From Gnetum montanum (lineage: Eukaryota; Plantae; Gnetophyta), in NCBI GenBank assembly GCA_015680685.1, contig MNCI01002587.1, positions 124,001-188,000 of the forward strand: DNA of 64,000 nt. The letters run 5' to 3'. A program made the translations under genes and the position numbers. Every line of letters starts with the position of its first letter. The stretch's first letter is position 1. The notes under the pieces are model-generated. The model saw nothing but the letters and a program-made list of their open reading frames with translations, was not told where the DNA came from and made no database searches. Of the stretch, positions 5,471 through 35,025 are shown piece by piece.

Positions 5471-5492
5471 GTACAAGCTCAGGTACGTGCGA

Positions 5493-5862: not shown

Positions 5863-6867
5863 TTATATCTCTAGTGGCTCAATTTGTAGCTGCATTCAAA
5901 CTTTATCAGAATCACTGCACTGCTCGCCATCGGATGATCCTAACAACATTGTTGCCATATACAGTGCCTGAAATCCTATTAGGTGCCTTTGTTTCATCAG
6001 TAGCTATTTAATTCTAAGCTCACTCACTCGCTCATGGTTTTCATTTCTTCGTGGAGTTATGTTTGCAGGATGACACTCAGAGGTGTTCGTATAAGAATGC
6101 ACTTCATCATAAACAGCAAGGTGAGAAGTTGTTTACAGCACCTGTGACAAGACAAAATCAAACCATTCACTAGTACATCCCCCATTTCATATCCTACCTA
6201 TCCCTCGACACCTTAAACTTGGTTACATCCCGAACACACCCGATACAACCCAAAAACATCAAACATACCATTGCATATTGCGCCACTCTTAAGCAATTAC
6301 AACTCACAATATGACATTTGAGCATGAGCATAAGAACCCAAAAAAAAGGATGACAGTTGTCTTCAAAGCAAATGTTCATGCCTAAAACAATCAAGTAACA
6401 TCCCATTGCATGGCTTTGGCTCTCCGCCAACAGGCTTCCCCTAAATACTAAATAAGGGCCCTATTCCTCCAAAGAATGCAACGCATCATCACGTGGCTTT
6501 GGTCTTGCCAACAAGTCCTCTCAGACACTAACTAAGAGCCTTGTTTTGCCAAAGGATGCACATCTCATGTCTTGATTCTGAGTCTGCTAAACAATGGCTC
6601 TTAACAAGGATCAGCATGACCTGTACACACCAAAACATCCCCTTTACCATGCGTAATCCCTTGATCAGTTCCCAATCCCACAATCTCAATTTCCCTATCC
6701 AGCTACAAATTTCACCTCCTCAATCCTATGTACTACTGAACACGGTGCGATGACGTCTAGTTAGGTGGCAAAGGAAAAAGTCTCTATGGAGTTGCTTGTG
6801 GAGTTTTGCACTTCTTTTTCGACGCTTCTCGGGTCGATTCCTCGAAGCGTCAACAAAGAGGGGCCAA

Positions 6868-8185: not shown

Positions 8186-9505
8186 TGGGTCCCATCCTCT
8201 AGAATTCTAGATTTTAGGTTCAAAATTTCAAGTTTTTGTAGCTCACGTTGTGGTCACACTGCACTCATGCTGCTAGTGCAATTCCAGCATGAGTCACCAA
8301 AATTGGTTCAAAATAGGGCACATCCAAGCTCAATTTTTGACTTGTAGATCACTTTTAAGGTCAGCCACAGTTAGGCAATTGATGTACCCAAGAAACAGGG
8401 TTCAAAAATAAAAAATTATTGTGAAATATGTCATTTTTAGCTCACTCATGCTAAGGTCATGCTAAGGTCACAATGACAGTGTGAGTGTAGCATGAGTACT
8501 AATAACGCCTAGACAAAAGCATGCCAAACACATGCTAAGGACACACCAAGAAAAAATCAACTCATGCTGGAAGTCCTGGTGAAATAGAGATGTCTCAAAT
8601 AGCCACAAAACCACTCAAATCTACACCCTACAGTAGTCAATTCAACGATCAACAAGTTTCAAGCGAGTCGGAGTTGATCAACCTCGTTGTACATTACCAT
8701 TTTCATTGTAAATGTTCATCAATTGTGACCTTCCCAAGCTCTTACGCTCTAAATTGTATCTACCTCCATGAGAGTAAGCTAGCTTGAGTAAGCTAACACA
8801 CGTTGTAAGATATAGTGCATCTAGTTAAGAACGTAGCATGCCCATGCATGTCCAACTCACATACAACTATCCATTGGACACGTGTCACATGATCCATTTT
8901 CCTCTCATCTCTTAGTTGTTGATTACATCCATGAATTCACCACTCGAACCTAGCCAAACCCTATAAATACCTTGTCAATTCACATAAATAGGGTTGAAAA
9001 TTTTGAAGGTTGATTGCTTAGGAAACTCAGACCAGCAATCATTGGGCACTTGAATACACTTGACTTCTAGCATCCAAACACTTCTGAAACACATCAGCCT
9101 AGGTCTTGGTTCTTGACCTGCCATCCACATATGCAGCTACGTTTTGACCAGTGCACATCCTTTCTAAGCAATACAATACCATTCATTTTGCCAGCCATTA
9201 TATTATTTACTCTATTTTACATTTAGTTTACGTTTTTTTGGCAATACTGTTATGTGTACGATATATTTGCATTTTGTACATCATTGTTTATATTTCAAAA
9301 GATCAGTTACGATAACCCTAGAAAAAGCTGTAGTTTACGCTTGGGGAAGTCCTTGGTTGATTTGCATGCAGACCATCCAAGGCACTCTGCCTTTGTTTTC
9401 TTTTCTAGCTTTCCCTTAGGTGAAGGCAGGGTTAGTTATGTCTACCCAACGATCTTTCGATTTGTTTTCCCTTCCAACCTTACACCAATGATTTAGGTTA
9501 GTACA
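8186..9505 (+). repeat. LTR of the E2 family in + orientation, 5' part displaced by the E1 insertion
   Basis: Reverse complement of 26048-27340; ends ...ggttagtaca; ctataaata ~8961. Confidence 0.9.
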
Positions 9506-10563
9506 ACGGGCTACGTTTTTGACCAGATGCACTATATCTTACAGTGTATGTTAGCTTACTCAAGCTAGCTTACACTCATGGAGGCACATACAATTTAGAG
9601 TGTAAGAGCTTGGCAAGATCAAAAATGATGAAAATTATGATGAAAATGATAATGTACAACAAGAGAGATTGACTCCGGTTTGCTTGAAACTTCTCGGTCC
9701 TTGAATTGACTACTGCGAGATGTCGATTTGAGTGGTTTTGTGGCTATTTGAGGCATCCTTGTTTCACCAGGACTTCCAGCATGAGTTCATTTTGTCTTGG
9801 TGTGTCCTCAACATGTGTTTGGCATGCTTCTGTCTGAGCATGATCAGTACTCATGTTGCCAACATAACCACAACGTGAGTGAGCTAAAAATGACATATTT
9901 CATACTAAATTTTGATTTTTGAAGTCTGTTTCTTAAGTACATCAATTTCCTAACTATGGTTGACCTTGACAGCGATCTGCAAGTCAAAAATTGAGCCTTT
10001 ATGTCCCTTGTTTTAAACCACTTTTGGTAACTCATGTTGGACTCACGCTGCTAGCATGAGTCCAGCATGACCACAGTGTGAGCTACAAAAACTTGCAATT
10101 TTGGACTTGAAATCTAGAATTCTGGAGGATGGAACTTGAAGTTGTCAACACTGAACTCTGAGGATGAATTGCACCTTGGAATCAAGTCATTTTGACTTAT
10201 TTTTAAGGCTCTCAAATTCGCTCATGCTATACTCATGCTTTTAGCGTGACCTCAACATGACCACTGCATGAGTGAAAAACTTTGTACCATTTGACCCAAA
10301 ATTTGAACTCCTAAATGATAAAACTTGGAGTGGACATTAGTGGCTCTTGAGGATGGCTTGCACCCTTAGATTTGGATCATTTTTTAGTTGATTTTGAAGC
10401 TTTTGGAGTTGCTCACATTGAGGGCAAGCTAGCTTGACAATGTGAGCAAGCTCACTTGAGCAAGCTGGGCATGAGTTCCATGTCTTAGTTAAATTTTACC
10501 TCCCAAATGCTCTAAAGGGATTGAGTTGTTTCAAAGTGTTAGGCCAAAATTAGTGGTGTTTCA
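9506..10563 (-). repeat. E2 3' LTR (U3 part; interrupted at 9505/9506)
   Basis: Direct repeat of ~26700-27736; PPT aaagagggatcaa on minus at 10564-10576. Confidence 0.92.
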
Positions 10564-11732
10564 TTGATCCCTCTTTATTGACATCTAGAGGAATCCACCT
10601 GAGAGGCATCAACAAGGAAGTGCAAAACACCATGAATAATCAAGTACCAAGCATTATCCATCGGCCCTTGATTGGACATCTTCGCACCGTGTTCAAAAGT
10701 ACATGGGATTGGGAAAGTGTAGTTCAAGATGCAAGGGGGATTGGTTGTAATTGAGGAATTAGGAGTTAATCAAGGGTTATAATTGCTATTGGAATTATGG
10801 GAGAGGAACGCTCTCATATGAATAAGCCATATCCTTAGTTCTTGTCGTAGCCTATTTGTAGTAGACTCAAAACCAAGACATAGGACGTGCGTTCTTTGGA
10901 GAAACATGACTCTTGTAGAGTGTTTACGGGAGCCCATTGTAAATAGCCAAAGTCACGCAATGATGTGCAACATGATTGTTTTAGACATGAGGGTAACTAT
11001 TTTTTCAAGAAAATGGCCTTCTCGCATGGGGCTTGTATGAGAATAGCCAATGGTCTTTGGTCTATGATGTAAATGGAGTCATGAAGACCTTTCTCGTGCA
11101 TTTTTCTCTTTGATATTTTTGTTCTTTTTCTTTTTTCTTGTTTGTTTCTTCTTTTCAATTGTTTTTCTTTTCTTTTATTTTCGAAAGACCTTGCTTTTAG
11201 TGCTATGCTCGTGCTCATGCGCTTGCATTTTGTATCATGTACCATGTACTGTGTTTTTTGTTGCAACTACTTAGAGAATCACAGTGTGCAACAGTGTATT
11301 GAGAGCTTTGGGATGAGTAGAATGTATCCAGGGAGTGTAATTGAATAGGATAAGTGGAATAGGGAATGTATCAAGAGCCAGGAATGTACTTATGAACAGA
11401 TTGATTAACCCAGTTGCATGCATCAGGAAGAATGTGAGACCTCGTCATCATGATGAAATGCATCTATGGGCGAATGCCTCAGGCATGTCATCCTACAAAC
11501 ACAACTCCAAGAAGACAAGAAAAATACAAATAATCTGGTTAACTAAGCACTTTAAACTTGAAAGAAACTAGGGAGATGGAGATGCCATGTGCAATTTCAA
11601 GGTAGGAAGAATCATGAACAACATCAACTTCATCAAGGTCTATGAGACAAATTATGTGGCAAGCCTTTGTGGAACATGTATAGCCAATTGCAGCAACATA
11701 TCTTTTCAAACATTTCCTGGTCATTGATGATG

Positions 11733-12060
11733 TCACTAGTTTATAGTCTTATCGGATTGTTGCAGGTTAGTTTCAAGTCATAACCCCTTGGATGATGCCA
11801 GTTTAGCATCGTAGTGGACGGTGCATTGCTAGTTTATAGTCATAGCAGACTGTGAAGAGGCAAACTAGTTTATAGTCTTAGTGGACTCCAGATGCTAGTT
11901 TTATGTCATGGTGGACAAATGTGGCAATTTAATGTCATGTCGGATAGAGCTCTATGGTGTTGGTTTATTATCATGACTCCAAGACACTCTATGGTGCTAG
12001 TTTCAAGTCATAGCCCCAAGACCGTTCTATGGTATCAGTTTTAGGTCATGATGCCAGGAC
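11733..12060 (-). repeat. Hairpin array in E2 3'UTR (~10 units)
   Basis: Minus strand tgcta-T-GACTATAAAC-tagca and ggcatca-T-GACCTAAAAC-tgatacc; homologous to 5493-5862. Confidence 0.85.
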
Positions 12061-12080
12061 TGTTACATACCTGAAATTGA

Positions 12081-15000
12081 TCAAACATAGTACTATTTCA
12101 AGTACACATGATTTTTGGGATTAACGAACTCATTCCCATCCATGTCAGCAAGTTTGAATGCTCCATTATTGTATGCCTTGATGACTAAGTAAGGCCCTTC
12201 CCAGTTAGCTAATAATTTATCTAGGTGTTCACGGATAGCCTTAAGGACTAGTCTCCTTCTTTAATTGGGTGCTTATGCAGATTGTGTTTGTGTCATTGCC
12301 GCTATTGTTTTTGGTACCACTAGATCTAATCAAGTGTTTGCACATGTTCCTCCTCCACCAAATCAAGGTCAGCAATGTGCATTTCATTGCTTTGGCTTTC
12401 ATTGAGGAGGCCTGAGAGAGCTATCTGCAATGAGGAAACCTATAACTCCAAAGGTAAAATAGCTTCAGATCCATATACAAGACTATATGGAGTTTTACCT
12501 GTAGATGTTCGATGTGTTGTTCTGTATGCCCATATTGTGTAGACTAGTTGTTCGTGCCATCACCTCTTACTTTAATTTAACATCTTTTTGAGCACCATGA
12601 TGATAGTTTTTTTTGTAGCCTCTACTTGACCATTGCTCTATGGGTAATAAGGTGATGAGAATGCATGTTTAATACCCAAGCTTTCACAAAAGCTTTTAGT
12701 ATCTACACTGTTGAACTGTGGCCCATTGTCAATAACGATGGTCATCGAAATATCAAAACAGGCCATGATGTTTTCTATTATGAAAGTAAAAATGTGTTTA
12801 GAAGTGGTCTTCCTAAGGGGAATAGCTTCTACCCATTTTGTGAAGTATTCAGTTGCAGTGAGAATGAAGCTATGCCCTATGGAGGATGATGGTGCTATTG
12901 GTCCAATTAAGTCTAATCCCCATCATTGCAATGGCCACGTGATTTATGTTTTGTGTAATTCGTTAGGTGGAACATGTATTAAGTTACCATGCCTTTGGCA
13001 AATGTCACATGTCCTGACCTTGGAAAAGCAATGGTACTCCATGTGTGGCCAGTAGTATCCCAAGCACCTAATCTTTGTTGCCATTTCTTTGGGTGCTATG
13101 TGCCCTCCACAAAGTCCTTCGTGGACTTGTTTTATAATCATTTGACCATCGATGCTACTAATGCACATCAACAGAATGCCTTCATAGGATTTGTGACACA
13201 AGGTGTCTCCTATTAATGCATATTGCCGAGAGCATCTTTGCACTACATCCTTATGAGCATTTGTTAGATGTTTTGGAGGTTCACCTCATAGAAGGTACTC
13301 TTTTATGTCATCATACCATTCTATTGCGTGTGTTGTGCTAACGGATGCTATAGGCATTTCATCAAGAGCATCGGTTATAGGTTCAGCACAATTTGTTCTA
13401 AAGCTAGGCAACACATGGAACATTTCGGGTGTCATGTTTAGGGCTAGTGTAGTAAGTGCATCGGCAATGGTGTTTTCGCTTCTAGGGACATGTTGTATAC
13501 CCACTTCTACTAATTTCCTCGGTAGATTTTTGGTCAAATCACAATATTATTGCAAATGGAGAGCTTTGCATGCATAAATTTCTGTGACTTGATTAATGAC
13601 TAACTGTGAATCGCCTTGAACTACAAGACATGATTCCCAAAGTTAATGCTGCTTGAAGACCTCTAAGAAGACCTTTGTATTCTACCATGTTATTGGTACA
13701 AGGAAAGGTCAATCGGTAGGCGAAGGGTTGGATTTCTCCAGAGGGGTATGTTAAAATGGCCACAGCACTTCCTCCTTAGGAAGTTGAAGCTCCATCAAAA
13801 TAAAGGATCACCTCGTAGTTATCAGGCATGGTGTCTATACTATTAACATTCTCATCAGGGAATTCATGGTTAATCATTGCCTGATCATGCATTGGCGAGA
13901 TGGTTAATTATGTGACTATTGCTTAACCTTTTGTGGAGGATTGAGCAACATAGTGTAAGTCAAACTCGGCAATCATTGGTTTTCACCTAGCTATCCTAAT
14001 CAACTTGTAGATGTTATTAGTGATGGCACAAAGTACATTATTCTTGCAAATGTTGTAGACTTGATTATAGAAGAGATAATGCAGCCATTTCTTCAAGGAG
14101 AATATGAGGGCAAGGCATGATTTCTCTATGTCATTGTATCGTTGTTCATAGGCAATTAAAGCATGGCTTAGGTAATACACAATGATCTCAACTCCATCTT
14201 TAGGTTTTTGACAAAGCATTGATGCAATGGAAGAATTGGAAGTTGCAAGATAGATGTAGAAGTGTTTATTGCTCTGTGGGGGATAAATGGTCGGTAGTTG
14301 AGCTAGCTCTTGTTTTATGTTCTTGAATGCTTCCTGGCATTGTTGAGTCCATTGGAAATGCACATTCTTTCATAATAGGTGTTGCATGGGTCTCGAATTA
14401 TCTGTCAACATTTCGATAAAGTGTCTAATGAATTGCAGTCTACCTTGGAGACCACGTAGTTCAGTAAGGTTTTCTGGTAGCCTTATTAGGGTCTACTCGT
14501 ATCCCTATTTCAGAGACTACGAAGCCAAGAATTTTTCTAGTTTTGACACCAAAGACACAATTCTTTGGGTTGAGCCTAAGGTCATATTTGAGACAACATT
14601 TAAACACTAGGTCTAGATACTTTGCATGTTGTTTGATTTTCTTAGATTTAACCGTGATGTCGTCAACATAATGATTGAGCAAGTTGAGCATGTAATCATT
14701 AAATATATATGTCATTGCTCATTGATATGTAGTGCCTGCATTTTAAAGACCAAACGACATCATCGTATAGCAGAATGTATGCCAAGGCATCATAAAGGTT
14801 GTTCTAAGTTGATGTTCCGGGTTGATTCTTATTTGGTTGTATCCTGAAAATCCATCCATAAAGGATAATAGCGCATGCCCAGCAGTTGTGTCAATAAGTT
14901 GATCGATGCTAGGTAGTGGGAAGTCATCCTTTATAGTGGCTGTGTTGAGATCACAGAAGTCAATGCATATGCGTATACTACCGTTCTTCTTAGGGACTAT

Positions 15001-15531
15001 GACAATGTTTGATACCCAGTCAGAATAGTCAATAGCATGGATGAAACCGACTTGGTAGAGCTTTTTGATTTTAGCACGGACTGCTAACGCCACCTCAGGT
15101 CTAACTTTTCATGCCTTTTGCTTCACCGGTTTGATTTTTCCATCAAGAATGATATTGTGTTGGACAATTCGGTGGTCTAATCTTTGCATATTGTTATATG
15201 ACCATGTGAACATTTTTATATTATCTTTCAGTACTTGAGTGATGTCACTAACAAGTTGTGAGTCCAGTAGGGCACTTAATTTCAATGTTCTAGCTTCGCC
15301 ATTAGAGGTGGTAATGGGGACTTCAACAAGGGAATCTTCATTGATATTATCAGCCTCTAGATCTAAATTTTTAGTTAGATTTTTAGGCGAGTCTGATGTT
15401 TCCTGAGTGGAAGCTATTAAGTAAGTATAAGCAGATGGGTCTAGATCCAAGGATTCTAGATTGATTACTCTTTTTACCTCCCTATATGATCCACTGAGAG
15501 ACAATGTTGAAAGAATGTTCTTGGCAGCCAT
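12081..15531 (-). pseudogene. pol: E2 pol: RT, RNase H, aRH, integrase, fragmented
   Basis: ORFs 15109-15531, 14743-15093, 14461-14715, 13983-14363, 13286-13537 and 12944-13243 align colinearly with E1 pol. Confidence 0.95.
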
Positions 15532-16099
15532 GTGTTTTCTCCTGCCAATTTAAATCAAGAGCGAAGTAAGTGATGTATGCTTGATGAAGGAGTCATTAAA
15601 TGTAAATAGGCATTGGGTAATTAATCTATGTACTAGCAAAATTATGAGACGTAGCAGTGGTCATGGTAGTTTTAGGCCATACCGGGCTAATAATATTCAA
15701 GTCATCTTGTATTTTTGATTGAGTGTATAGAGCATTGCTCATTTCTAAATTTTGTGTGAACAATAAGTTTGTGGGGCTTTAAAGTCTTATGGATTTTCAT
15801 GCGCATCGTTATGTATTTATATATATATATTGATTTTTAACCTTTCTCCCCTCCTTTATATAAAATTTTTTATTTCTAATATTTTGGCCTCATCTCTAGA
15901 GGCTGGAATGATGAGGAATACTAGGCAAGCATGAAATAAAGATGACATAAATAATAACATGCAAACAAAATTTAAACATGAAACATGATAAATTTAAATA
16001 AAAAAGAGAAAGTAAAATAAGAGAAAATAAATTAAATTAAATTGAGAATGGATATTAGGGGTTAATAAAGGGGGCTTTGAGATACAAGGGCATCATTTG

Positions 16100-17135
16100 T
16101 GCTAGCGTGAGTTGGGCATCTGGATTGCAGCGTGAGCATCATCGTCAACGTCAGCATGAGCTACAATGTGAGTTACAGGGTAGCCATGAAGGGCAAAGGG
16201 AAAGCAAGTTGAGGCAAAGGGAAGAGGCAAGAAAATCTGGCATTTTTGGAGGAGAGTAAAGAGCTACTCCAGCATCTCCCCTAAGCCAGGATTCCAACAT
16301 GGGATGGAGCTCTGAATAGGTAGATTTGTTTCCTCTTGTTTTCTATAGTATTCTATTCACAGCGTTAGCTAGGGTAGCATGACTTCTATGGTCATGATTT
16401 TGGGTTGTTCTTGGGGATTCAGGGCATGATTGGGGCGTGAGTGGCCCAGGAAGTGCACAGTCAAATAGTTAGATTTTTTTTGTTTTTTTCATTTTTACAT
16501 ATGGGACGAGTGTAGCATGACTGCCAGGGCTTTCTGGGCAGTGTGAGCTTTTAGGCAGGCCCCAGTGTGCATTTTAGGGATGCCCAGCATGAATGACAGT
16601 CTAGGGCAAGCCAACATGAGTGGTTTAGGATGTGAGTGCCTAGGGGATGTGTAGGGCGTGAGTGCCCAGGGAATGTACACAGTGTGAGTGCCTAGGGAAT
16701 GCGCAAGGCATGTGTAGGATGAGTTGGATCTCTTTACATTTTGTTCACTAAGTGTTAGGGATATCTAGGGTAGTGTGAGCTTTTTCCAAGGCAGCGTGAG
16801 CTACATTGCAGGGGGAGGCTTGGTTTTTTTTGGCATTGTGAGCTACGTTGTATGGTTAGTTTCCAACATGAATGCCAAGGCTTCTTGGGTAGCATCAATT
16901 TTTCTTGTGCAGTGTGACTGCCAGGGCTTCCTGGGCAACATGAGCACAAGGTTCCCTGGGCAACATGATCTGCAAGGTTCTTAGCATGAGTTAGAATGCA
17001 GGAAACCTAGTGTGATTTTTGCAGGAGATAGGCAACATGAGTTACTGGGAACAGGCCCCAGCATGAGTTGCTGGGAACAGGCCCAGCATGAGTTCCTACA
17101 GCGTGAGTTACTAGGAACAGGCCTAGTGTGAGTGT
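16100..17135. repeat. E2 motif array, core CAGCGTGAG/CTCACGCTG (deaminated to catgag, gtgtgag)
   Basis: Many agcatgag/agcgtgag/agtgtgag copies; positional equivalent of E1 318-1420. Confidence 0.8.
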
Positions 17136-17342
17136 CTAGGCCCCTATTTGTTAAGATGTGAAGATGTAAATTGTTTGGTAAGATGTTTATTATTTGCAAG
17201 TTTTATATCTACTTAGTTTATTATTTTCTTAGGATAGATAATTTAAATACATTTCTATGTTTTTCTAAGTTTATGTTGAATATGTGAATGTTCATGTTTT
17301 TACACTTCTGTATTTATTTTATGTTGCTAGCAATAAACTACT

Positions 17343-20300
17343 ATGTAAGAGATTTCAATGTACCCCAGCGAGCATTAAGTATACTAAATAAATATTGGTG
17401 TCCTTGTCTCATGGGGTGAAGCTGTGTGATTAAATGTTATTTATGTGTTTGGTTTATGTGATTGCATACTATTGTTAGCACTTAGACTCTTTACTTACCT
17501 AATGTTTTGGCTGTATGCAGGGAACCTAAACCTTCTCTTCTTGTGGTTGAGCTTGTTGGTGTACATGCTTGGTTTGGCCCCTTTGGACCAGACATACCTC
17601 CTTATGACATGCGCATTGGGCCTCATGTAATATGGTTTCATCCCAGTGTTGGTTCATTTTTGTCATTCATCTTGCAAAATTTTAGTGTGATTATATGGTC
17701 TCACTTAAGTGAATAGTTGGCTCTTGATATCATTGAGACAATGTTGCTCAGGTCTACACAAGACATGCTTGCCTTCATTACCGACATAGATGAGGGACCT
17801 TTTAAAGTTGAGGGAGGCCCTGATGAGGGTCCTAAATCTATTTTTCCTTTGACTTGTGTATGGGAACTGCCTACTTGTTGCCATTATAACAGTAGCAACA
17901 CACTTTTCCTAACCTTTCGTCTGCACACTCTATTCCAAAATCCACTTGGGACACTGTATAGACTGGACAGGTATGCTCTTTTCTAATTTGCTTAATTTTT
18001 GATTCTTTTAAAATTATACAGTTTTCTATGCATAAATATTATTTTTCTATGCAGGCCTCGATTTGATGAGAATGGGATGCATGATGATGATGGTGGGCTT
18101 GCATTAGCACACACAGTGTTGGAGGCATTCATGGTGGGCCCCATTCTTCATGCTACGATACTATACCAGACAAAAGTGGCTATTGTTAACTACCATAGGC
18201 AATTCTCAAGGGATTTTGAATGTTTTCAAGTTTGTGGTTGGTTGCATGAGGATTAGTCTTCTAATGGGTCAATTTTTCCTCAGAGCATTGGTCCTACACC
18301 TAATGTGCCTATGCCATTTACTGATGGTAAATGATCACATTCTAGACTCCATTTTCTTTTTGTTGCATCATCGTGTACTATATTTTTAACCTTTCTCTTT
18401 GTGTTTTTTTTTACAGTAGCCATCTTTTCTGATGAAGTTACCATTGTATTAGGGCATACTGAGGCCACCCATTTTATGAAATATGGGGAGGTAGAGCAGT
18501 CACAACAATGGTTGCAGAAGAAAGCTCCTGAGTTGATCATCAGTTGCCTTACCTTAGTAGGTCTGATGGACTTGTTCACTACTTTGACTCCAAATGTTCC
18601 GACGATTGAGATGATCACTATTGTAGATTCTTTCAGTGATGATGCTTCCCATTTTACTACACGAGTTCAAGGAGTTAAGGTATCTTTCCACCTGACCATT
18701 GTGTTCCTTTTCAATCTTTTTGGCATGCCCATGAATGGTGCCAGGGTGGCCATAGATAAAGCAACTAAAGAAGGCTAGGTCATAAAAGAGCTTGAAGAGT
18801 GGTTAGGCGTGTCTTGGGGTCCTAAAGGTTTTTCCATATAAAATGATACCTAATCACTAGAGATGAACTTCTTGTACCCTCTCTTTCGGGAACGAGCATT
18901 CCCTAAATCTATCTCTCAAGGAAGAAACCTTGGGATCGAGTCTGCACGTGTCATACACGTAATCTTAGAGATATGCATGCATTATAACTAGGCACAGTTT
19001 CTTGGATCTAGCTTTCATGGAGAGATTTTTAGGTTACGTTCAAACATCAACACCAAATCCCATTTCATGTTTGCTTTCTTCACAAGGTACCTATGTAGGT
19101 TTGCTGAGTTCCTAGTAGTTTATGGTGATAACCGTTATATATTGAGAGATCATTCATAGTTGTCCTGCCCCTGGATTCATCATTTGTTTAGCACCACTAG
19201 ATCTCAGGACCCACCCAATGGCATCGATGAATCAGTGTTTGTTACTACTAGGGGTGTAGCTAGTAGTTCCCATCATTCCTATGATAGTTTGGGATTGGAA
19301 CTGCCTATACTGCACACGTTTGTTAAAGGGGCTGAACATATGATCCATGAGACCGTCGGAAGATCTAAGGTGAAGGTGAAGAGAAATGAACACCCAAGGG
19401 AGCTTGCTCCTGACGTGAGACCACCAAGAGTGAAGAGGATCCGCTTCATATTACGAGTGGAGGGTGAGTGTTTTTTATTTTATTGTTATGTATTTATATT
19501 TATTTATTTTTTAGTTTATATGTTTATTAATCATACGTATATGCTATGTCATACGAACACTAGGATTCTAGTGTTATTAGAGGAAAGTCCTGAGAGGGAG
19601 AGAGAAGTCTTGGCCTCGATGGTTGAACCAGAAGTGATTGTCACAAGGCCAGGGGAAGAAGCAATCAAGAAACCTCCTTCTCCACAAGAGAAAGATGTGA
19701 CAAGCATCGTGGGGACAAAGCTTGCTGAGGCTTTGGATGCACTTAGGCATTCAAGTGATGAAAGAGGTGTTTTCGATGGTTTCTTTGATGGATCTTTGCA
19801 ACTTGGTGATCCGCCCAAGCTTACTAGCAAAGGGATTTTTGGTATGTTCCTTTTAGCACAATCCATGTTTTCATACCTTTTAACTTTTATGTGTTGTTCT
19901 TGATTATCTTGATTATTCCTAACATTAGAGGTAGATGCGAAGGTTTCTAAGGCACATACATCCTGGATGGAGGTGTTAGGATCACAGGCCCCATTTGAGG
20001 TACCCTCCCATGCTTGTCCCACCTCCACTAACCAGCTAAGGCCATGGCCTGAGATGCCTAGTAAAATGGATTTTTTCACAGGCATCGTTAATGATATGGT
20101 CGCTCACCTACAACAAGCTCATCCAAAACTAGGTATATGTATGTTATGTATTATGCTAAGTGTTTGGATTTATTGTGTTTCTTTGCATTCATCATTTTTT
20201 TTAGATAATAGCTTATTCATGTGTGTGATTCTTACACCTACAGGTGCCGAGCTTCAATGGGATCCTTCTGAGGCTACTCATATTGATGCCCTCCCTGAAT

Positions 20301-21196
20301 TGCCAAGGAATATTGAGCAAGTCCCTAGAAAGGTTTACGATGCAATTTTTAGTTGCATCGTACTAAATGCCAAGTCACTTTGGACTTGTAGGAATTCAAT
20401 TGAATATCTATGAGACGAGGTGCAATCACTGAGGGAAGCACTAGCAAATGAGAGAGAGGAGAAGAGGGATCTCCAATCCTATTATGATTTTTCTGCTACA
20501 AGGCTATTTGGTGATAGCACCTGGTGCACATCTGAAATCACCTATGCACGTTACTAGATGGTTTTGAACAGCAAAGTGTAGGCGAAATGGGATTTAGTAG
20601 AATAAAGCGCACATATGGATTTGCTGAATAGGAAATGTTACGATTGGAAATCCTTTACTACTAAAGTATGGAAGTGGGGTCAGGAGCAAAAGGATCACAA
20701 GAATTAGTACAAGAAATGGTTAAAGGAGGAGTCTATTGAACATCGTCGGATGGAAATGTTCATTGATGGGCTAGGCTTGCATCCTACTTATGATAGGTTT
20801 GCCAAGTGCACCAAGGTGGAGGGATCTCCCAAGAGAATCATTACAACTGCCTCTAAGGAGGCTTCGACAGGCATGTTCTCTCTCGAGCACCCTACCTGGA
20901 CTTTGGTGGAAAAGGGTAAAACCTTAGCTGGTATTGATCTTGGCCTAGAGGAGGATTGGGCAAATGTGCCTGAGAAGGAGATTCTATGGCTTTTGGAGGC
21001 CAGCCTAAGGCCTTCCTCACTTATGAGTATTTTATTATGGCACTTACTTTTGTATGGTTTTATTGTTTTTATTGTTAGTATTATTGTTTTTTCTGGCTTT
21101 GCATTCCGAGTTGTTTTATTACTCTTACCAGTTTTTTTGTTTTTTATTCTATTATAGGGACATGTTAATGATGGAGATGGTCCCCCAATTGAGTGA
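17343..21196 (+). pseudogene. E2 antisense multi-exon accessory gene (~1000 aa): FCP1/SCP-like pseudo-phosphatase + plant transposon protein-like domain + coiled coil
   Basis: Phase-consistent GT-AG exons 17343-17344, 17521-17970, 18055-18326, 18417-19463, 19581-19841, 19929-20132, 20244-~21023, and a possible 21158-21196; no frameshift; stops are single C>T or G>A changes. Confidence 0.8.
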
Positions 21197-21594
21197 GAGC
21201 GGATGATGAAGAGGATCTTGGGGACAAACCCCTTCCATAAGGTTATTGTTAATTAGGATTTAGCTATTAAATGTTTTGGATTTTTGGATGTTTGATGGAA
21301 ATATATGATGGAAAAATGTAATAATATGGATCTAATCATGGCATAATGTGTTGGAATTTCATTACCATATTGACATTTAGTATTTTTTTTATTTTTAAAT
21401 GATTTCTCTTTTTGTTTGTTTTCTCAAGTATTATCATGAACATATGTGTATAGCTAAATGTAAAATGAGGGAACAAAACATAAATCCAATATTTGTAGAA
21501 GAGGAAAGTAATGAGAAGGCATGAATCAAAATTGTAACTTGTAAACAAACATTTAACGTAGTGTAACAAGAGTTTGTGAATTTGTACATCTTGA

Positions 21595-21835
21595 GCTCTA
21601 GTTTAAAGCCATTTCAGGCTGTGTTCATCCGTTTAAAGTCATGATGGACTGTCAAATCTATTGTTAAACAAAGAGGGTTTACCAGTTTTAGGCCATAGTG
21701 GGCCGAAAGCAATAACAGTTTTAGGGAATTTTAAAAGGAACTGGCCATTTCTAACCATGCCTATTTTAACATCATTGCGGACGTTCGTTGGTAGTTTTAA
21801 AGTCATGCTAGATGATTGGTAGTTTAACATCATTC
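21595..21835 (-). repeat. Hairpin-motif array just inside the 5' end of the large intron
   Basis: Minus strand TGGCTTTAAACT, TGACTTTAAAC, TGGCCTAAAACT, TGACTTTAAAACT and TGATGTTAAACT. Confidence 0.7.
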
Positions 21836-21935
21836 CAGACGGTTGGGGGTAGTTCGCCCTAACCATTAAGTTGTTTTTTAATCCTTTGTAGTTTGACATG
21901 AGGGGTAGGGCATGTAGGCATGATCTTATACTCAC

Positions 21936-24900
21936 CTTCCCCTTCACTAGTGATGTCAAAGGGTAGCTCTAACTAGGAGACGTTAGTGGGAACGGCTCCT
22001 ATATTTGTGTTGTTTGGTGCTTCCTTAGTTTTAGTAGGATCATGAGTTATCGTTGGGTTCATGTCCTAAAGTATGCTCATGGTTCCTTGTTTAGGCTCAG
22101 AGAACTCAATTTTTCACCCTTGATCCATTCTTGAGTGCTAGGAAGTGGGTGATGTTGTCGTATCCCCATGTATGATGATCTCACTGCCCTCATAAGGTAG
22201 GTGGATCTCTTGATGGATTGGTGAGGATACGGCTCCAAGTTGAGCTAGCCAAGGACGTCCTAAAATCATATTGAACCCTAGCATTTCTTCAACCACTACA
22301 AATTCAGCTGATGTGGGGAACTGGTCCCCTGCTATGAAATCCAATGTAACCATACCTTTCACCATGACACGGGAACCACTAAAGGATCTTAAGAAAGAAG
22401 TTGTTGTGGGATGTATCTACTCTATAAGCCCCAATTTCTTGATGATAGGAAAGGGTATTACATTCGTTGCTGCACTATCATCAACATGCACCCTATGTAT
22501 CTTGAAATGGTTGACTTGTATCTTTATAAACATAGGGGCTGTAGTAGCCTCTCCCATTTTCTCATCCTACTTAATCTCGTTAGCATGAAACTCTAGGGAC
22601 ATCATCCTTGACTCTTGAGGTTGTTGGGACAGTACCGCATAAATAGACAGCTCGTCTGTGGGAAGGTCCTCACTAACAGGGATTGAAATCAACATATGCA
22701 TGAGTGCTTCTTGATGTACAGTTGAAGTCATTACTAGATCATACAGGCTTAAGGAAGTATTCTTTTGTTTCAAAGCTTGCGTGACTTGAGTTAATGCACT
22801 CACTAGATCTTTACCATTTGGGGCATCCTTATCTACAAAGACTTGATCCATTTGACCTAGCATTCGTATCTCTCATAGAGGTATTTTGCATTGGCAACTA
22901 GGGATGTTGAGTTTGGGACCCTAAGAGTACCAATATTCTTGTCTTAGTGACTTGTGCTAGGCTCACTAATGGATGGACTCATAGGAACAACATTTAACAG
23001 TATGGGCTTTTTTGGTCCTACTTCACACTCATGACGTTCCTTCTCTAGGAACTCTCGTGTCAACTTTTTGACAAGATGCTCTCGTAGGGGTCACAGGGAA
23101 ATGGTAGGGGGTTGCACATCAGGGTGTTTCAGCATCCAGATCACAAAGGGAGTGGGCTGGGTTTCCAATGGTGTGGTTGTTATTGCGACAGAAGGGGATA
23201 CATGGATGACAAATGATTTTTGTGGCATGGGGAATGTGTGTACAACGAAAGGAGTTTGAGGAGGTGTTGAGGTAGGTGTATTACAAAATTTTTTCACGAG
23301 ATGTCCTATCCATTCTCCACATGAATAGTGTTAATCACATACAGTGCATCATTAGAATTGAGAGGGTCCTTGTAGACCCCCATGGGTTGGTTCTAGGGCC
23401 TCATTGGGTTTGTCTCATCAAATACTATTTCACCCCTATCAATCATGCACTATATATCCTATTTTAAGGTGAAACAGTAGTTAGTTCCATGTCCACAACA
23501 TTGGTGATATTCACAAAATCTATCCAACCTAAAGCCTCTTGGAATGGGGGGCTCATTAGATGTTGCTAAAGTTGGGTTCTTAGCCAACTCACAGAAACGA
23601 TCATGGTTTTGAGACACCATAGGAGACATTTGTTTATGTTTGATTAACCCAGCCTTTAGAAGTTGATCTAGAAATTGTGAAGGCTTCATAGGAAAGGGTG
23701 TATACTGAGTAGGATCATTTCATTCAAATGTACTAGTGTGACCCATTTTGGTGCTTTTATTTGAGGAAGATTCGGGTGTAGGCATAGGTGTGGTTCTTTC
23801 ACGGCCGGTTGGAGTAGCAGGTTTTTTTCCTTTCTATCTTGGATTGTTAGGTTGCGATGTCTCTGCCACCACCACTACTATCATTTTGGATTTATCTTTA
23901 TCTTTCCTCGTATGTTGGTTCCTAAAGGTTGAATAAGCTGGGTTATTACTTGTTTCTGCTGCCTCTTCTATGTTCTTAATTTGCACAAATGCTTGGCTTA
24001 AAGTACAAGCATTCAAATAATAAAGTTTCAATTTAATAAATTCATTCATGGTCGCTTTAAGAATGGTAAGAAGATATGTTTCAGGGATGGGCTTGTGAAG
24101 CTCATTCAGGGCCGCACTCCACCTTTGGATGAATTTTTGTACTAGTTCTAATGACACCTTTTTTATCTAAATCAAGCTATCTAGTGTGGCTTCAAGCTTT
24201 AGATTATATTTCAAGCGGGTAATGAACTGATGTAACAAGTCTTCTAGGGAGGATATGGAATTACAAGGTAAATCTCAGTACCAATCTAAGGCTTTTCCCA
24301 TTAGGGACATAGCAAATACATGTAGAATTGCATGATGCCAGGCTTGAAGTAATAGACACTCTAGAGAAAATGTTACCAAATGGGCGTTTGGATCTCCCTC
24401 TCCATTGTACTTGGTTAGTTGAAACAATGAGATTCCCTTTGGCAAGGTTAATGGTGGGACTAAAGGATGGATTGGGTCATCTTGATAGAAGTCCAGCACC
24501 TTGACTCCCTCAATGTTTTTTTACAGTTTTAAGGTGCTTTAATTCCTTAGTTAATGAGTGCATCATTTTGTTCTTGTGTCTACCCACTCTTGGGCAGTAG
24601 GCAGACTGATGGGTTAAGTGGATTGTGATTGATAATAATTCGATTGTTGCATTGTTTTTGAAAAGGGAGACTGTTGGATTATCAGTTGTGGTGGAGAAAC
24701 ATTCAGAGATGGGATTGCAAGGTGTGGTACATTGTAGTGAGTTGGTTGATGTTGTTGAACAACTGGTGAAACCCACTGTCCAACCACAGGTTGTGAGGTC
24801 ACACCCTGAACGTGTTGGGCTGAGGTAACCAATGGTACTCCATGAGTTTGCACTTGTGGTATGTAATGGGTGGACGTAGAAACTGGTATGATAGATGGCA

Positions 24901-26025: not shown

Positions 26026-26041
26026 CCTCCTTCTAATGTCA
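26026..26041 (-). promoter_or_regulatory. E2 primer binding site, tRNA-Asn type
   Basis: tgacattagaaggagg = TGGCGCTAGAAGGAGG with three transition changes; complement of the plant tRNA-Asn(GUU) 3' end as I recall it. Confidence 0.7.
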
Positions 26042-26047
26042 ATTTAT

Positions 26048-27736
26048 TGTACTGACCGAAATCATTAGTGTAAGGCTAGAAGGAAAAAAATAAATACTAA
26101 AATATCGTCGGATGGGTACTGCTGACCCTGCCTTCACGTGAGGGCAAGCTAGAAAAGAAAATGAAGGCAGAGTGCCTTGGATGGTCTACACGCAAATCAA
26201 CCAAGGACTTCCCCGAACGTAAGCTATGGCTTGCACTGGGGTTATCATAACTGATGTTTGAAATGTAAATAGTGATGCATAAAATGCAAACAGATCGTGT
26301 ACAGAATAGTATTGTGAACAAAACATAAATTGAATGTAAAATAATGTAAATGATATTATTGAAGGAAAAAATGAACTGTATTGTATTGCTTAGAATGAAT
26401 GTGCATTGGTCAAAGCATAGCTACACGTGTGGATGGCAAGTCAAGTGTTAAGCCCTAGGGTGATGTGCTCACAGGTGCTTGGATGCTAGGAGTCATGTGT
26501 GCTCGAGCATCCAAAAGTTGCTAGTCAGTGTTTCCTAAGCTGTCAACCTTCAAAATTTTCAACCCCATTTATGTGAATGGATGGGGTATTTATAAGGTTT
26601 GGCTAGGATCAGGCATGGAGTTTCATGGTTGAGAGATGAGAGGAAAATGAATCATGTGACACGTGTTTGATGGACAATTATGTGTGAGTTGGACGTGCAT
26701 GGGTGGGCTACATTTTTGACCAGATGCACTGTATCTTACAGTGTGTGTTAGCTTACTCAAACTAGCTTATGCTCATGGAGGCACATATAATTTAGAGCAT
26801 AAGATCTTGGCAAGATTACAAATGATGAAAATTTACGATGGAAATGATAATGTACAACAACAGAGATTGACTCCGACTTTCTTAAAACTTCTTGGTCCCT
26901 GAATTGACTGCTGCAGGATGTCAATTTGAGTGGTTTTGTGGTTTTTTGAGGCATCTTTGTTTCACCAGGACTTCTACCGTGAGTTTATTTTTTCTTGGCG
27001 TGTCCTCAACATGTGTTTGGCATGCTTTTGTCTGAGCGTGATCAGTACTCACGCTGCACTCACGCTGCCAGCGTAACCTCAGCATGAGTGAGCTAAAAAT
27101 GACATATTTCACACAAAATTATGATTTTTGAAGATTATTTCTTAAGTACATCAATTGCCTAACTGTGATTGACCTTGAGAGTGATCTGAAAGTTAAAAAT
27201 TAAGCCTTGATGTGCCTTGTTTTAAACCAATTTTGGTAACTCATGCTAGACTCACGCTGCCAGCATGAGTGCAGTGTGACCATAGCATGAGCTACAAAAA
27301 CTTGCAATTTTGGATCTAAAATCTAGAATTCTAGAGGTTGGAACTTGAAGTTGTCAACACTGAACTCTGAGGATGACTTGCACCTTGGAATCAAGTCATT
27401 TTAACTCAGTTTTGAGGCTCTCAAAGTTGCTCATGCTATACTCACACTGCCAGCATGAGTGAGAAAATTTATGCCATTTGACCTAAAATTTGAACTCCCG
27501 AATGCTGAAACTTGGAGTGGACATTAGTGGCTCTTGAGGATGGCTTGCACCCTCAGATTTGGACCATTTTTTACTTGATTTTGAAGTTGTTGGAATTGCT
27601 CACGCTGAGGGCAAGCTATCTTGATAGCATGAGCAAGCTAGGTGTGAGTTCCATGTCTTAGTCAAATTTTGCCTCCTGAACACTCGAAAGGGCTTGAGTC
27701 GTTTCAAAGTGTTAGGCTGAAATTAGTGGTGTTTCA
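26048..27736 (-). repeat. E2 5' LTR (1689 bp)
   Basis: TGAAACACCACTAATT...GGTCAGTACA, followed by the PBS. Confidence 0.93.
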
Positions 27737-27995
27737 ATAAAGGTTGATGATTTTAGTAAGGAAATTAACTTAAAGGATCATCAAGAAGAGGAATTTGAGT
27801 TTAAGTCTAAACCAAAGTTAGACACCTTCATTAGAAGTCTTTTCTAATGTTCAGCTTCCCAAACAACTACACCTAACTCCATGTCTCTTCCCTCATCGGT
27901 CGGACAAGTCCCTCAGCCTAATTCCCCTCATGTCCACTCTACCATGTTTGAGTCTACATTCATTATTGTCACACACCAAGCATAATGCATGCCTC

Positions 27996-28864
27996 TAATG
28001 TGCAATGAGTATACCCTACACCCAACCATATGAATCACTAGCATTGACTAAGTGATTTAGTTGAATTGCATAAAATTTAGCTCTCTAAGTGCACGAGGTC
28101 TAGGAGGTGAATCTACAAATTGTGATCATTGTCTTCTCAATTTCACTTATGAGGAGAAGGTGTCTGGTTTAAGTGTAACTAAGGCATCTAATATTTATCA
28201 TTTTATCTTTTATTATTTTAATTTCCTAAGCACTGACAACATAATAAACTTAATATTTAATTAACCTAATTAATCTAATAACTAACCAATACTTAACTAA
28301 TCCTAACAAAAGAATTTGTTCCAACTTTCCTATACATCTTAAACATGTTGCAATGCTACTGGGTGGCCAAACATTAAGTGCTATTGGGATTACCAAGCAT
28401 TAATGTATGCTTGAAGCAGTTGTACTTATATTCACTATTTAATCAATATTAATCACTTAATTACAGTTTATTAAAGTAAAGTTCATGAATAATAAATGCA
28501 TAAGAAGACATTAATCTATTCCAAGTGTTACAAGGTTTTATAAGAAAATCTCATCTTTATTACTATTCATACTAAGGTGCTTAGGTATATCAATGCTTGA
28601 ATAAAGATCTGTACACTTCGTTGACTCATACTATAGGCACTCAAAAAATATTCTAACTTTCAAAAGAAAAAACTGCAAGAGCTTTGCTACAGCTAGCTAA
28701 AAGAGTTCCATAAATGTAGCTGGTAGGTGCACATTTATAGGTAAAAGTAGAGTGCCACATTGATGGGTACACATCAACATAGCAAACCCAATATCAATGG
28801 GATCCTGTTGATAGGGTCACATTGATGACATCCCATCGATGCAGCCCAATGACATGATTCATCA
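27996..28864 (-). repeat. E3 3' LTR
   Basis: Direct repeat of 35026-35891. Confidence 0.9.
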
Positions 28865-29109
28865 TACCCCCACAATTAAATGAAAACTCATCCTTAAGTA
28901 AACAAAGGAGGAAGAAGTTCTTTATAAAATTTTGGGAAGGTATGGGATTATTAACTAACTACAGATACACAAAAAAAAACATGACAAAAACATAAGTTTC
29001 CATGTAGATTTACAATCATTACAAATATTGGTATTTTGGATAACAACATTGAACACCATGACAAGAAATGATAACAAAACTCCTTAGATGACCTAAATAT
29101 GATGAAAAA

Positions 29110-30676
29110 AATCAAATGGTCCAAGGCAATGAAGGCTCCTAAGGCTTTGAAGGACCTTCTCCTACATCAGGGACATGTAATTGTTGAGGTGGTGGTTGTG
29201 GTTATTCTACTCGAATTGCAACTTCTAGTGGAAGAAGGAAGACATCCAACAATGTCTTCAACTTCTCCTTCTTACTCTAGGGATTATTCATGACCAATGT
29301 TGCTTCATAAATCTAGGCCAAAATGGGAATATTCCATAGACAGAGCATTCTGGGGACTATCTTCTTCACATTAACAAACCAGGCAGCAAACTATTTGCAT
29401 TCAATGTCAAACACCCTAAGTTCATTTTGTAACTCCTGGTAGTCATTCATTCTCTTGGCCAAGTTCTTAGCTATTGATCTTTGATTGGTGAATCTCTCCC
29501 TGAGAATGTTGAGTTCAACATTTGCAACCTCAAACTTCTACTTGGTCTCTTTGTGATGTTTGAACTCTACCTTGTACAATAAGTATGAGCTAGCCACCTA
29601 CTACTCTAGCTCTAACCATTACCTTTTGATAGTTCGCATTGCCAAGTTTGCATATCGAAGGTTTGTAAGCTTCATGTATTTAGTCACTTCCACAATATAT
29701 AACTCCTTCATGTAAATTTCAACTTTATTATATTTAGTTAACCCATCAAAGATAGGATACCAAATATCAACTCCTTGTTAAAGCTATTAGAGGGCCTCAT
29801 TGAATTTCACCTTTGTCAATTGAATGTGCTTCTCATTAATTTCTTTCAAAAATTCCACATGATCTCTGTAGTCGTTCATGATCCTCTCAAAATTGAAGGC
29901 CTCAAGATAGAATAATTGTAGAAGGTTGATATGGAATCTTCTACTTAGAGTGGTGCAAACATGGGTGGAGAAGGTTGTGACTTTGCTAGGCCTCAATGTT
30001 GGATTGAGATGAAAGGTTGCAATTTTAAAATATTCTCATTTTTTCATGGTGAGTGTACCAAACTCCTTGCAGTCCACTCCATAGCACCACTATGTCCATT
30101 ATTTCTTGATGCCTAGATATACCTACATTAGAATTTCTACTAGAGTGGCCCTAGTTTTAAGAAACCCAAAGATCTCAAAGATTACTTTCACCAAGTAGGA
30201 CATGGATATATCCTTGATTTTGATTATGGAACTAGCCTACCTATTGTTCCAAAAAATGTATGTCTCTCTCAAGTACCACTTCCCACTGGAAGTGATGATG
30301 GGCCACATGGAAGAGTTTTGTAGTTGAGTTTTGACTTCTGTATGAGCAAACTCTAAAAAGGGTCCAAAAGTTTAGCTCTTGAAGCATAGATTTCTAGATC
30401 TCCTTGGATGCAATTTTCTTTAGGTAGACCTCCATTAAGGTGACCTCAAGATTAGATCTTAACTCTCATGCCTCATCTCTGTGGGACTATTTTGTTGCAA
30501 TCGCCTCAGGAATGTATTTGAAAGATTCCACTATGGTCTCTTCCTGAATGTGTTTTGTTGCATGGATTTCTACTCCTTGGTCCTAGGGATGTTCTTAACC
30601 CCTTCTAGTTCTTGGTCATTTGTCCCTTAGTTGGGATGGTCCTCCCTCCTATGGGTACTTTCCTTTTGGTGTCATT
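29110..30676 (-). pseudogene. E3 3' accessory ('env-like' position) ORF remnant, internally deleted relative to E5
   Basis: Begins atgacaccaaaagg (MxPKR); homologous to 47420-50265; charged coiled-coil-like C-terminus. Confidence 0.6.
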
Positions 30677-33199
30677 TTTTAGCACAATAATACCAAGGAT
30701 TAGTGTGTGATGTGTAACTTATAGCCTTTAAGTACCTTATCTCATTGGGTAGTTACACTTTGGCTAAGCTATGACCATGGTATATTGATTATTTTAACAT
30801 TATTTTAATGTTCTTTAATTTAGAGGATCATCAAAGTTTGCTAGAAGGGTTTAACTTTCATGAATTGATGACTTTAATGTTAGTTAATTAGTTAAAACTT
30901 TGTGGGAGTTAGAAAATTTTTTAAAAAATTTAAGGTTTGTGGCCCTCACAATGAAGAGCTTACCCCCAGTAGCTACAAGACTAAAGAAGAAGGGTAATCA
31001 AACAAACAGTGTGAAAGTTATGAGCTCTAAAAAATGCAAAAACTCCTCCCTCATTTATGAGCAAATGTGAAAAAACTAAGTGTGTCCACCTATTTATAGG
31101 ATTTTTATGTTGTGTTGATGGGATCCTATCGATGGGATCACATCAACACAATGGCTCCATACATAGGATCCTATCGATGAGGCCTACAAATAAAAGGAGA
31201 TCAAAAAATGCCATGAACATGATGAAATAGTGGAAGAGGGATAGATTAGTCACAAAAAGGAAGTTTGAGTTGGAGAATGAATTTAAAGGAGAAGTACCAT
31301 TAAGGAGTGCATAGCTGGATGCAACCAATGGGAAATGCAAAAGTATTTGAATGCACAAATTCCTAAGGATAAAGAAGTTAACTAGCACAACCAAAAGAAA
31401 TGCAAGAGGGTCCTCCTTAAAGCAAGATCATGCCCTTTTTTTTTTACAAATCCTCAAATGAAAGATTCCATGGGCCCCATGAATGATTAATGATTGTGAA
31501 AAGTTAAGGACTAAATCCCATAAGAATCTACTTGAGAATTTTAACATGTCAAACTAAGACATTAAACAAAACATGAAAAATTGTAGTGAAATGAGGTATG
31601 GATAGCATTATTGAATGATGAGGAGAGTGGAATGGTGTTTATATTGTGGTCACATGAAATCCCTTGTGGATTTTGTGACTAAATGAGCTGATAAAGTTCA
31701 TCCTTCATCTAAATTAAAACTAACCACTTCTAATGAATTTGCATTGATACTCTAAGACAAACCCATCCCCTCAAGATATAAGAATGTTCCCACAGTATAA
31801 GGGGTGTTCTTTGAATTCCCATCATGTTTTTTTTTTTGAATTTTATATTTTTATGGATTTTTGGATGGGAACCACACCATGCAAAGACTTTAACTTCCTA
31901 TTATTGGTTGATAGTAGAACCATAAGAAATCCATGAAAACACTCATGTGCTTAAGAGAGTAGGCAAGTATAGAGAGCATCAAATCCCCTTGAAGTCATAC
32001 TCTTATCAATCCATTTAATCTTTTCCAAGCTTGAAAATTACCAAGATCAAAAGTTCATTAAAAGTTTCCTTAAGGAAGAGAACTCATATTTCCAAAACAA
32101 GGAACACCATAGAGTTTTTTGGATGGTGGATAACATGGACTCACTGCCTATTTCATGAAAGAGAAACCATGTTTTAGTTATCTATACCAAAATTCAAAGA
32201 TAGAATCTAGACATTAGTAATCAAATAACATTAAGTACAAACCACCATTAGTAAATAGCTACAAAATCACTATGTCCTATTGGGAATAAAGGAAAATAAG
32301 AAAGATATAAGAAAAACATATGGAAAACACAAGAAAAAAAAACCAAAATAAAGTAAAACATAGAAGAAATTGTAAAATATTTAAAAAATAAAAAATGTAC
32401 TAAAGATGTTGTAAAATAAAAAATGATGTAAAACAAAAAATTAAGATAGAACTTATTATTTTTTGGTTCAAGATAGGGGATCTCCCCCACAACTATATTC
32501 ATGGCTAAGACAAGAACTACTAAGTGGGTTATATGGTTTCATGCATTTTTTGAATAGTTTAGCATTCTCATTTGTGAGCCACTAGGTGTTGTTTGGTTTA
32601 GTTGCAATTTTGTAGAATTGATTTCATACACATTCTTTTTTCTTATGTTTGTTATGGGTTAATGTAGGAATTTAGTGAACACCTTAAATCTTCATCCCAC
32701 AATTGCATCCTTTCTTACTACTAGTAATGCATGGAATGTCTTGTCTCACCTCAATGATAGGTTTATCTTTTACATTTTGTGTTGGAGTGATGATTGTTGT
32801 TGTCTCTTGTGTAGGATTGGGAGACATTGTTTCCACAAGGAAGGATGTTTCACTAGATTGGTCTTGTGCTAGTTTTGATGAGCTAGTAGATCTATGCATC
32901 TTATTCGCATGAGTGGGAACTATACCAAAGAAGGAACATNTACCAACAATGTAGGAAGAAGGGACACTGCAATATCAATGAAATAATACTACTTGTGCTA
33001 TAAATATACATGAAAATAATTATGTTAGTAGATCTCCACAAAAATCTATAAAATGTTCCTTCTTTGGTATAGTTCCCACTCATGTGAATAAGATGCATAG
33101 ATCTACTAGCTCATCAAAACTAGCACAAGACCAATCTAGTGAAACATCCTTCCTTGTGGAAACAATGTCTCCCAATCCTACACAANCAATAAAGGTAGT

Positions 33200-34920: not shown

Positions 34921-35025
34921 AATACTAATATTTCTAAAAAGATAAATCATTAATACTATTCCAGTGATCATTTAGTGATTTCACTATTGTCCTAGATAGT
35001 GCACATAGCTTGGCAATGATGCCAA

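Follow-up and report, generated by a model that had tools for sequence, protein, structure and literature searches.

Plant Tat elements often carry accessory genes in antisense orientation. A review describes the antisense ORFs of this group as having no relatives outside transposons, and their origin and function as mostly unknown (PMC7264820). In Ogre elements, the spacer between Gag-PR and RT is, in the available text of two studies, a spliced intron (PMC6317226, PMC4408406), and the available part of one of these surveys catalogues extra ORFs on the 5' or 3' side of the polyprotein region, with domains of the PMD, Transposase_28, SMC-like or Athila ORF1 type (PMC6317226). NIF proteins are also known in inactive forms, with fungal members that have a DxNxT motif listed as pseudophosphatases in the accessible portion of one account (PMC13216928).

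Here we describe an antisense gene, predicted between the protease and RT of a decayed Ogre-like element, that opens with an FCP1/NIF domain. Our preferred reading, to which we assign a probability of about 0.55, is that the first exon of this gene (exon A) is an inherited part of an accessory gene of an Ogre-like Tat family, and that its catalytically dead NIF domain is likely a protein-docking module.

Element context and the predicted antisense gene

Decayed LTR retrotransposons fill the window, by which we mean the whole 64-kb stretch of plant-like nuclear DNA analysed. Element E2 carries the feature under study, and its minus-strand order is 5' LTR (26048-27736; ending in CA, its outer end not fixed), gag and protease, a 6.4-kb gap, RT, RNase H (RH), a second RH and integrase, and a partial 3' LTR (9508-10563) that is interrupted by a second element, E1. 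Just behind the 5' LTR, positions 26026-26041 of the minus strand hold a primer-binding-site-like sequence, which we take to resemble that of Tat elements. The decayed gag and protease stretch (~21936-24900, minus strand) was identified visually by its zinc-knuckle and protease-like motifs, with no Pfam matches on its short ORFs, while the RT-RH-aRH-INT region, also decayed, spans 11700-15500 on the same strand. The E2 LTR pair is the same at 903 of 1020 sites (88.5%; K2P 0.127), and the ratio of observed to expected CpG in the insert between protease and RT is 0.30.

The pol of E1 (1994-5900, plus strand) comprises RT, RH, a second RH and integrase, with Pfam matches to RVT_1, RT_RNaseH, RVT_3, Integrase_H2C2 and rve in that order. 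Its RT is 74% identical to that of E2 (153/208), and the two pols are colinear at 70-74% identity. The LTRs, the RT-RH-INT order and the second (archaeal-type) RNase H place these elements in the Tat clade, and their layout, with the aRH between RH and INT and with Gag-PR and RT parted by an intron-like spacer for which splicing is predicted, is Ogre-like.

E1 appears to have inserted tail-to-tail in the 3' LTR of E2 (8189-9506 and 9508-10563), the LTRs of the two elements are about 80% identical, and an LTR-end-like sequence just before 8186 perhaps marks a tandem LTR. Elsewhere in the window we found a third, more distant gag-protease copy (36295-38700, plus strand; ~40% identity), after which no RT or NIF domain was detected, and a 7-kb element (27989-35777) between direct repeats of ~800 nt (80-89% identity), to which sequences at 46500-50000 and 56300-57000 are related. 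A 133-nt inverted repeat (32807-33185; 99%), with inner ends that abut the two N positions of the window (32940 and 33186), is likely an assembly artefact.

The best sense splice donor within 1 kb lies at 21935, directly after the protease, and the best sense acceptor within 750 nt at 15542, directly before RT, so the accessory gene falls entirely inside a predicted 6.4-kb gag-pol intron (15542-21935, minus strand). The same acceptor is predicted before pol in E1, near 1985, and the phase of the predicted donor-acceptor junction fits in E1 and is one base off in the decayed E2. A 20-29-nt motif common to both elements is present in tandem before RT in E1 (1674-1874) and once near each end of the E2 insert (15668-15687 and 21684-21703), and is possibly a splicing or packaging signal.

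Within this spacer, exon A opens a predicted six-exon antisense gene of about 1,000 codons. On the plus strand, exon A (17521-17970; one in-frame stop at 17714) is followed by a predicted GT-AG intron of 84 nt and 21% GC (17971-18054) and by predicted exons B (18055-18326; no family match, in-frame stop at 18254), C (18417-19463; 349 codons, five stops), D (19572-19841; charged and of low complexity, no stops, acceptor at 19571 or 19580), E (19929-20132; no stops) and F (20244 to ~21026; five stops, 3' end uncertain). The five predicted introns are all GT-AG, ~50% T and 21-29% GC, and nine of their ten sites have the best local splice score. The spliced frame runs through 1,008 codons with 12 stops and no frameshift, compared with 56 and 103 stops in the other frames. 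Two basic, NLS-like clusters lie at the end of exon C (19355-19462), and a rough heptad score marks a coiled-coil-like stretch in exon F near 20378-20460. A preliminary description of this locus had drawn the domain from 17521 to 18256; its core holds, as the domain itself lies at 17531-17953, but 17971-18054 is a predicted intron and 18055-18326 has no NIF match, and the end given at 18256 coincides with an internal stop rather than the end of the gene.

All intron lengths are divisible by three (84, 90, 108 or 117, 87 and 111 nt), so that the six exons share one genomic frame; this also holds when sites are chosen by splice score only (chance 0.004), and three of the five introns contain in-frame stops. 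Repeat arrays of unrelated sequence lie upstream of exon A in both elements, with 54-nt units in E1 (314-730) and degenerate units of 20-46 nt in E2 (16100-17140, plus strand). The E2 repeats are likely to be the promoter and 5' leader of the antisense gene, for which a start codon was not located. Exons A-C gave no match in Pfam or NCBIfam, and exon C also had no PDB match, an empty word-based protein search (longer lengths) and, for its first 119 residues, no usable Atlas match. Judged by eye, exon C has some resemblance to Transposase_32/PMD motifs, from which we claim no relationship, and no PMD match was obtained for it with Pfam or NCBIfam.

Many short introns are typical of the accessory genes of DNA transposons. 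The structure of the gene could accordingly point to delivery by a CACTA or MULE transposon, which would have captured the NIF domain and carried the accessory gene into the intron of an ancestral element. The available text on Ogre PMD ORFs, which relates them to MULE PMDs, is in keeping with such a route (PMC4408406). However, the ends of the insert show no convincing terminal inverted repeat (the longest being 32 nt, 72% and AT-rich), and no transposase family was matched among the scanned ORFs and exons. We therefore regard delivery by a DNA transposon as unlikely, while noting that it would be compatible with a docking role for the domain.

Fold and family of the exon A domain

The FCP1-type motifs quoted in the preliminary description were all found, in a single plus-strand frame from 17522. 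In E2, the position of HAD motif I (17549-17563) reads ELVGV, where host relatives have D-[LIV]-N-G-[LF], and is followed by WFHP (17633), IIWSH (17690), KSIFPL (17834), YNSSNT (17885) and NPLGT (17939). Between the SNT and NP anchors, which align without gaps, the motif IV position (17912-17917) reads TF where host relatives have DD. A fragment of the same exon is present in E1 (1-216, minus strand), cut by the window edge and frameshifted near 165. Here the motif I region reads VVELVGV, identical to E2 at 7/7 residues, the acceptor context and phase are as in E2, and the exon again lies upstream of and antisense to RT.

Exon A matched no Pfam family at E≤10, nor any NCBIfam family, and in a PDB sequence search UBLCP1 was the sole match at E<1 (E=0.017 with the single sequence, 0.0018 with both copies). 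HMMER, run in full against 1.84 billion proteins, gave 13 matches at E≤0.001, 12 of them Pfam NIF above cut-off, with the best (E=1.2e-10) clustering with Sphagnum proteins. One match (P0009) reflected a cadherin-like repeat and was kept out of the alignments as an artefact, and P0025 and P0037 were also excluded from them; the near-duplicates P0022, P0035 and P0039 were excluded from the tree and column counts. A profile built from the NIF matches scored 67 bits on E2 and 38 bits on E1, values that are optimistic since the profile members were picked for likeness to the query, against maxima of 4.7 bits (E2) and 5.4 bits (E1) in a shuffle control with the same profile (1,000 each). The comparison with Pfam NIF (PF03031) that the preliminary description had proposed was thus borne out through the profile of library NIF matches and not by a direct hit. 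The E2 domain covers profile positions 4-146 of 202. Exon B, considered as a source of the domain's C-terminal helix, was rejected at -0.7 bits on the NIF profile, so the last ~55 positions are missing.

Profile-profile and structural comparisons point the same way, with hhalign giving 99.1% for exon A against NIF. A fold model built from a 22-row alignment (pLDDT 81) had SCP1 (Foldseek E=3e-5), CTDNEP1 and SCP2 as its top fold matches, with comparable scores for UBLCP1, Tim50 and Fcp1 (E 3e-5 to 1e-3, TM 0.5-0.6), and VIA-align against FCP/SCP-type HAD structures gave Z 11.1 and an r.m.s.d. of 2.6 across 127 residues. These fold matches are partly circular, because the alignment under the model contained NIF proteins; the model from the single sequence had a pLDDT of 36. 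On the strength of the sequence matches, joined by the partly circular model, we consider the FCP1/NIF (HAD) domain at 17531-17953 to be real, as the preliminary description had proposed.

The closest relatives of the domain, judged by sequence, belong to the DxNG subfamily and are not CTD phosphatases. Among the 12 NIF matches, motif I is D-[LIV]-N-G in ten and DLDET in one, with the region absent from the remaining one, so the donor of the domain likely already lacked DxDxT. A phylogeny with host FCP1-domain proteins was another of the checks proposed earlier; in a 17-row tree (one row non-DxNG) exon A is weakly placed, on a long branch of 3.59 changes/site with support of 71/27. In a Helianthus protein, P0013 (KAM0004709.1), two NIF domains of the DxNG type are joined to DUF724, and the second NIF domains of plant proteins of this type show further motif decay.

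Relatives of the element's own version of the domain were found neither in protein searches nor in metagenome contigs. Word-based protein searches with exon A (near and longer lengths) gave no match, none of 139 stretches from metagenome contigs was confirmed as a relative, the domain was present at 0/22 metagenome RT loci (≤55% identity), and viral contigs gave no RT match.

Catalytic residues, charge and selection

ELVGV retains the Gly of the DxNG subfamily motif I. The earlier proposal that ELVGV stands in place of DxDxT is correct in that DxDxT is absent from both copies, but a single-step replacement does not fit, since most relatives (10/12) carry DxNG. The wider loss of catalytic residues was confirmed: motifs I, III and IV are changed in E2, and motif I in E1 too. 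The DD motif of E2 had been described as lost and is indeed replaced by TF. Both the motif III Lys and the motif IV acidic pair are absent from E2, the E1 fragment stops short of them, and the motif II Ser is kept in both copies (WSH). The motif IV codons differ from any Asp-Asp pair at at least 4 of 6 bases (p ~2e-4 under LTR-implied decay), and loss of this motif through decay after insertion is unlikely.

The changes are concentrated in charged positions. Conservation among 16 host domains reaches at least 80% in 26 columns, of which E2 keeps 16. The five charged columns all differ (the motif I Asp, an Arg kept in E1, the motif III Lys, the motif IV Asp and a later Lys), whereas 16 of the 21 others are kept (Fisher p=0.004, or p=0.014 without the Arg that E1 retains). 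The E2 domain contains only 4 Lys+Arg and has a net charge of -10, compared with 16-27 and -3 to +4 in the 16 host domains. In pol, E2 and E1 have 72 and 72 Lys+Arg in 791 residues, so decay does not account for the domain's loss of basic residues. Across the 48 columns covered by E1 there are 4 Lys+Arg against a host range of 4-11, at the low end and not outside it, and the motif III/IV result and most of the charge result are those of the E2 copy only.

These residues bear on the function suggested in the preliminary description, in which the dead domain would act as a substrate trap that binds or shields phosphoproteins such as the Pol II CTD in its phosphorylated form. The element relies on Pol II, the motif II Ser is retained, and SCP1, CTDNEP1 and SCP2 are the top fold matches; yet UBLCP1, Tim50 and Fcp1 score comparably, so that the fold match does not favour CTD enzymes over the others, and the sequence relatives are of the DxNG type and not FCP1/SCP/CPL. 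In E2, moreover, the Lys position that binds phosphate is lost, as are almost all basic residues (4 Lys+Arg where hosts have 16-27), and this loss, with the resulting net charge, argues against trapping of the phosphorylated Pol II tail. Nothing found here points to the CTD, and we consider a trap improbable.

Comparison of E1 and E2 across 70 codons of exon A gave a pS of 0.66 and a pN of 0.32 (dN/dS ~0.27), with silent sites near saturation and with these two as the sole copies compared, E1 being a 71-codon fragment. Differences by codon position are 30/18/38 in exon A and 39/24/96 in 208 codons of RT, indicating a much weaker constraint on exon A, and one minus-strand frame of exon A has a similar pattern (pS 0.55, pN 0.35). 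The density of stops in the antisense gene (12 in 1,008 codons) is comparable to that in E2 pol (20 in 1,078; p=0.28), which suggests that the gene stayed intact for about as long as pol and that the two decayed together. With 12 stops, the E2 copy is now dead. The sequence comparisons support a domain that was inherited in two diverged elements and kept under selection, in agreement with the earlier suggestion of co-option by the element: pN lies below pS and the structural core is kept.

We also considered a neutral passenger, in which a piece of a host gene was taken up a single time, has decayed ever since and does nothing for the element. The long branch (3.59 changes/site), the broken state of both visible copies and the missing C-terminal part of the domain would all fit this. 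Such a fragment is nevertheless difficult to reconcile with a pN that is half of pS, with the retention of structural residues where charged ones are gone, with ~1,000 codons free of frameshifts at a stop density equal to that of pol, and with the same site of residence in two elements that have diverged at 26% of RT residues, leaving this explanation very doubtful. Least probable is a rebuilt enzyme with Glu as nucleophile in a remodelled active site, for although the motif I Glu is common to E1 and E2 within the 7/7 identical stretch, and human TIMM50 is reported in the accessible portion of one account to be active despite an imperfect motif (PMC13216928), E2 lacks the motif III Lys as well as the two motif IV Asp, which leaves it no Mg2+ or phosphate ligands.

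Proposed role and relation to known systems

According to the docking reading that we prefer, a host-derived domain from the eukaryotic DxNG subfamily would have been captured into the element lineage and would then have lost its nucleophile, metal ligands and most of its basic residues. The resulting acidic fold would be a likelier partner for a basic protein surface than for a phosphopeptide. Transcription of the accessory gene would be driven by its own antisense promoter, and splicing would yield a protein of ~1,000 residues, probably nuclear, composed of the dead NIF fold, a 350-residue domain, a basic cluster, a low-complexity linker and a coiled coil. The accessory gene would ride in the unspliced genomic RNA and be removed with the gag-pol intron for Pol; being cut out in this way, it would cost Pol nothing, and its own introns would survive because they are located on the strand that is unspliced during copying. 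The protein would most likely have regulated the element's own expression or silencing. More tentatively, and at somewhat less than even odds, the dead acidic docking module of this host-origin antisense gene in the gag-pol intron may steer host chromatin or transcription proteins in the element's favour.

If true, this would be a retrotransposon-encoded pseudo-enzyme and a direct case of host origin for an antisense accessory gene, tracing to a host protein family a type of gene for which a source can seldom be named. The site inside the protease-RT spacer would represent a third location for extra genes, and surveys of 5' and 3' ORFs of at least 250 codons would largely miss such a gene because of its introns. 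The exon A domain is a defined module with which partner testing is possible, and it hints that the uncharacterised DxNG subfamily may serve as a docking fold, perhaps borrowed repeatedly by transposons.

Among host proteins, the closest to exon A are DxNG NIF proteins (PF03031; a Sphagnum two-domain protein in the cluster of KAH8970694.1, XP_043635805.1 and XP_023001699.1), at 20-29% identity. The fold core, the order and spacing of motifs, the Gly after motif I and the W[ST], Y..SNT and NP anchors are common to both. Unlike these proteins, the element domain has the motif I Asp and Asn, the motif III Lys and the motif IV Asp-Asp all changed, lacks the C-terminal quarter of the profile, is acidic instead of neutral or basic, and is borne by a retrotransposon. 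A precedent for an FCP1-like fold that has lost its motif and works as a protein-binding receptor is the core of fungal Tim50, as described in the available text (PMC8346121); Tim50 is there a mitochondrial membrane protein, and it is absent from the sequence matches of exon A.

Among transposable elements, E2 shares with Ogre, as far as the available text of two studies describes it, the RT-RH-aRH-INT order, the Gag-PR/RT spacer, a length of ~17-18 kb and an extra ORF (PMC6317226, PMC4408406). It differs from the catalogued Ogre extra ORFs in that its gene is placed in the PR-RT spacer, starts with a NIF domain and is predicted to contain at least five introns. With the antisense ORFs of Retand, Grande and RIRE2, as presented in the parts of the sources at hand, the gene has in common its antisense orientation, upstream repeats, a basic cluster, a coiled-coil-like tail and a presumed role as a nuclear regulator, but those ORFs occupy the region from pol to the 3' LTR rather than the PR-RT spacer (PMC7264820, PMC11963269). 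A further difference from those antisense ORFs is that the E2 gene carries a host-family domain. Capture and retention of a host enzyme domain by a Tat-family element has a parallel in the AlkB demethylase ORF of an orchid Ty3/gypsy element, which the available text describes as recent and catalytically active (PMC9289625), in contrast with the highly diverged E2 domain and its lost catalytic residues.

NIF is not among the domains tabulated by the largest survey of extra ORFs (Additional file 4 of PMC6317226), and the word 'phosphatase' is absent from the available text of the Retand survey (PMC11963269). In the open-access literature we came across no account of an LTR retrotransposon with a NIF/FCP1 domain, though an earlier mention is possible. 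Antisense accessory ORFs in Tat elements and the capture of host enzyme domains are already known, and what appears to be new at this locus is the NIF domain and its site in the PR-RT spacer.
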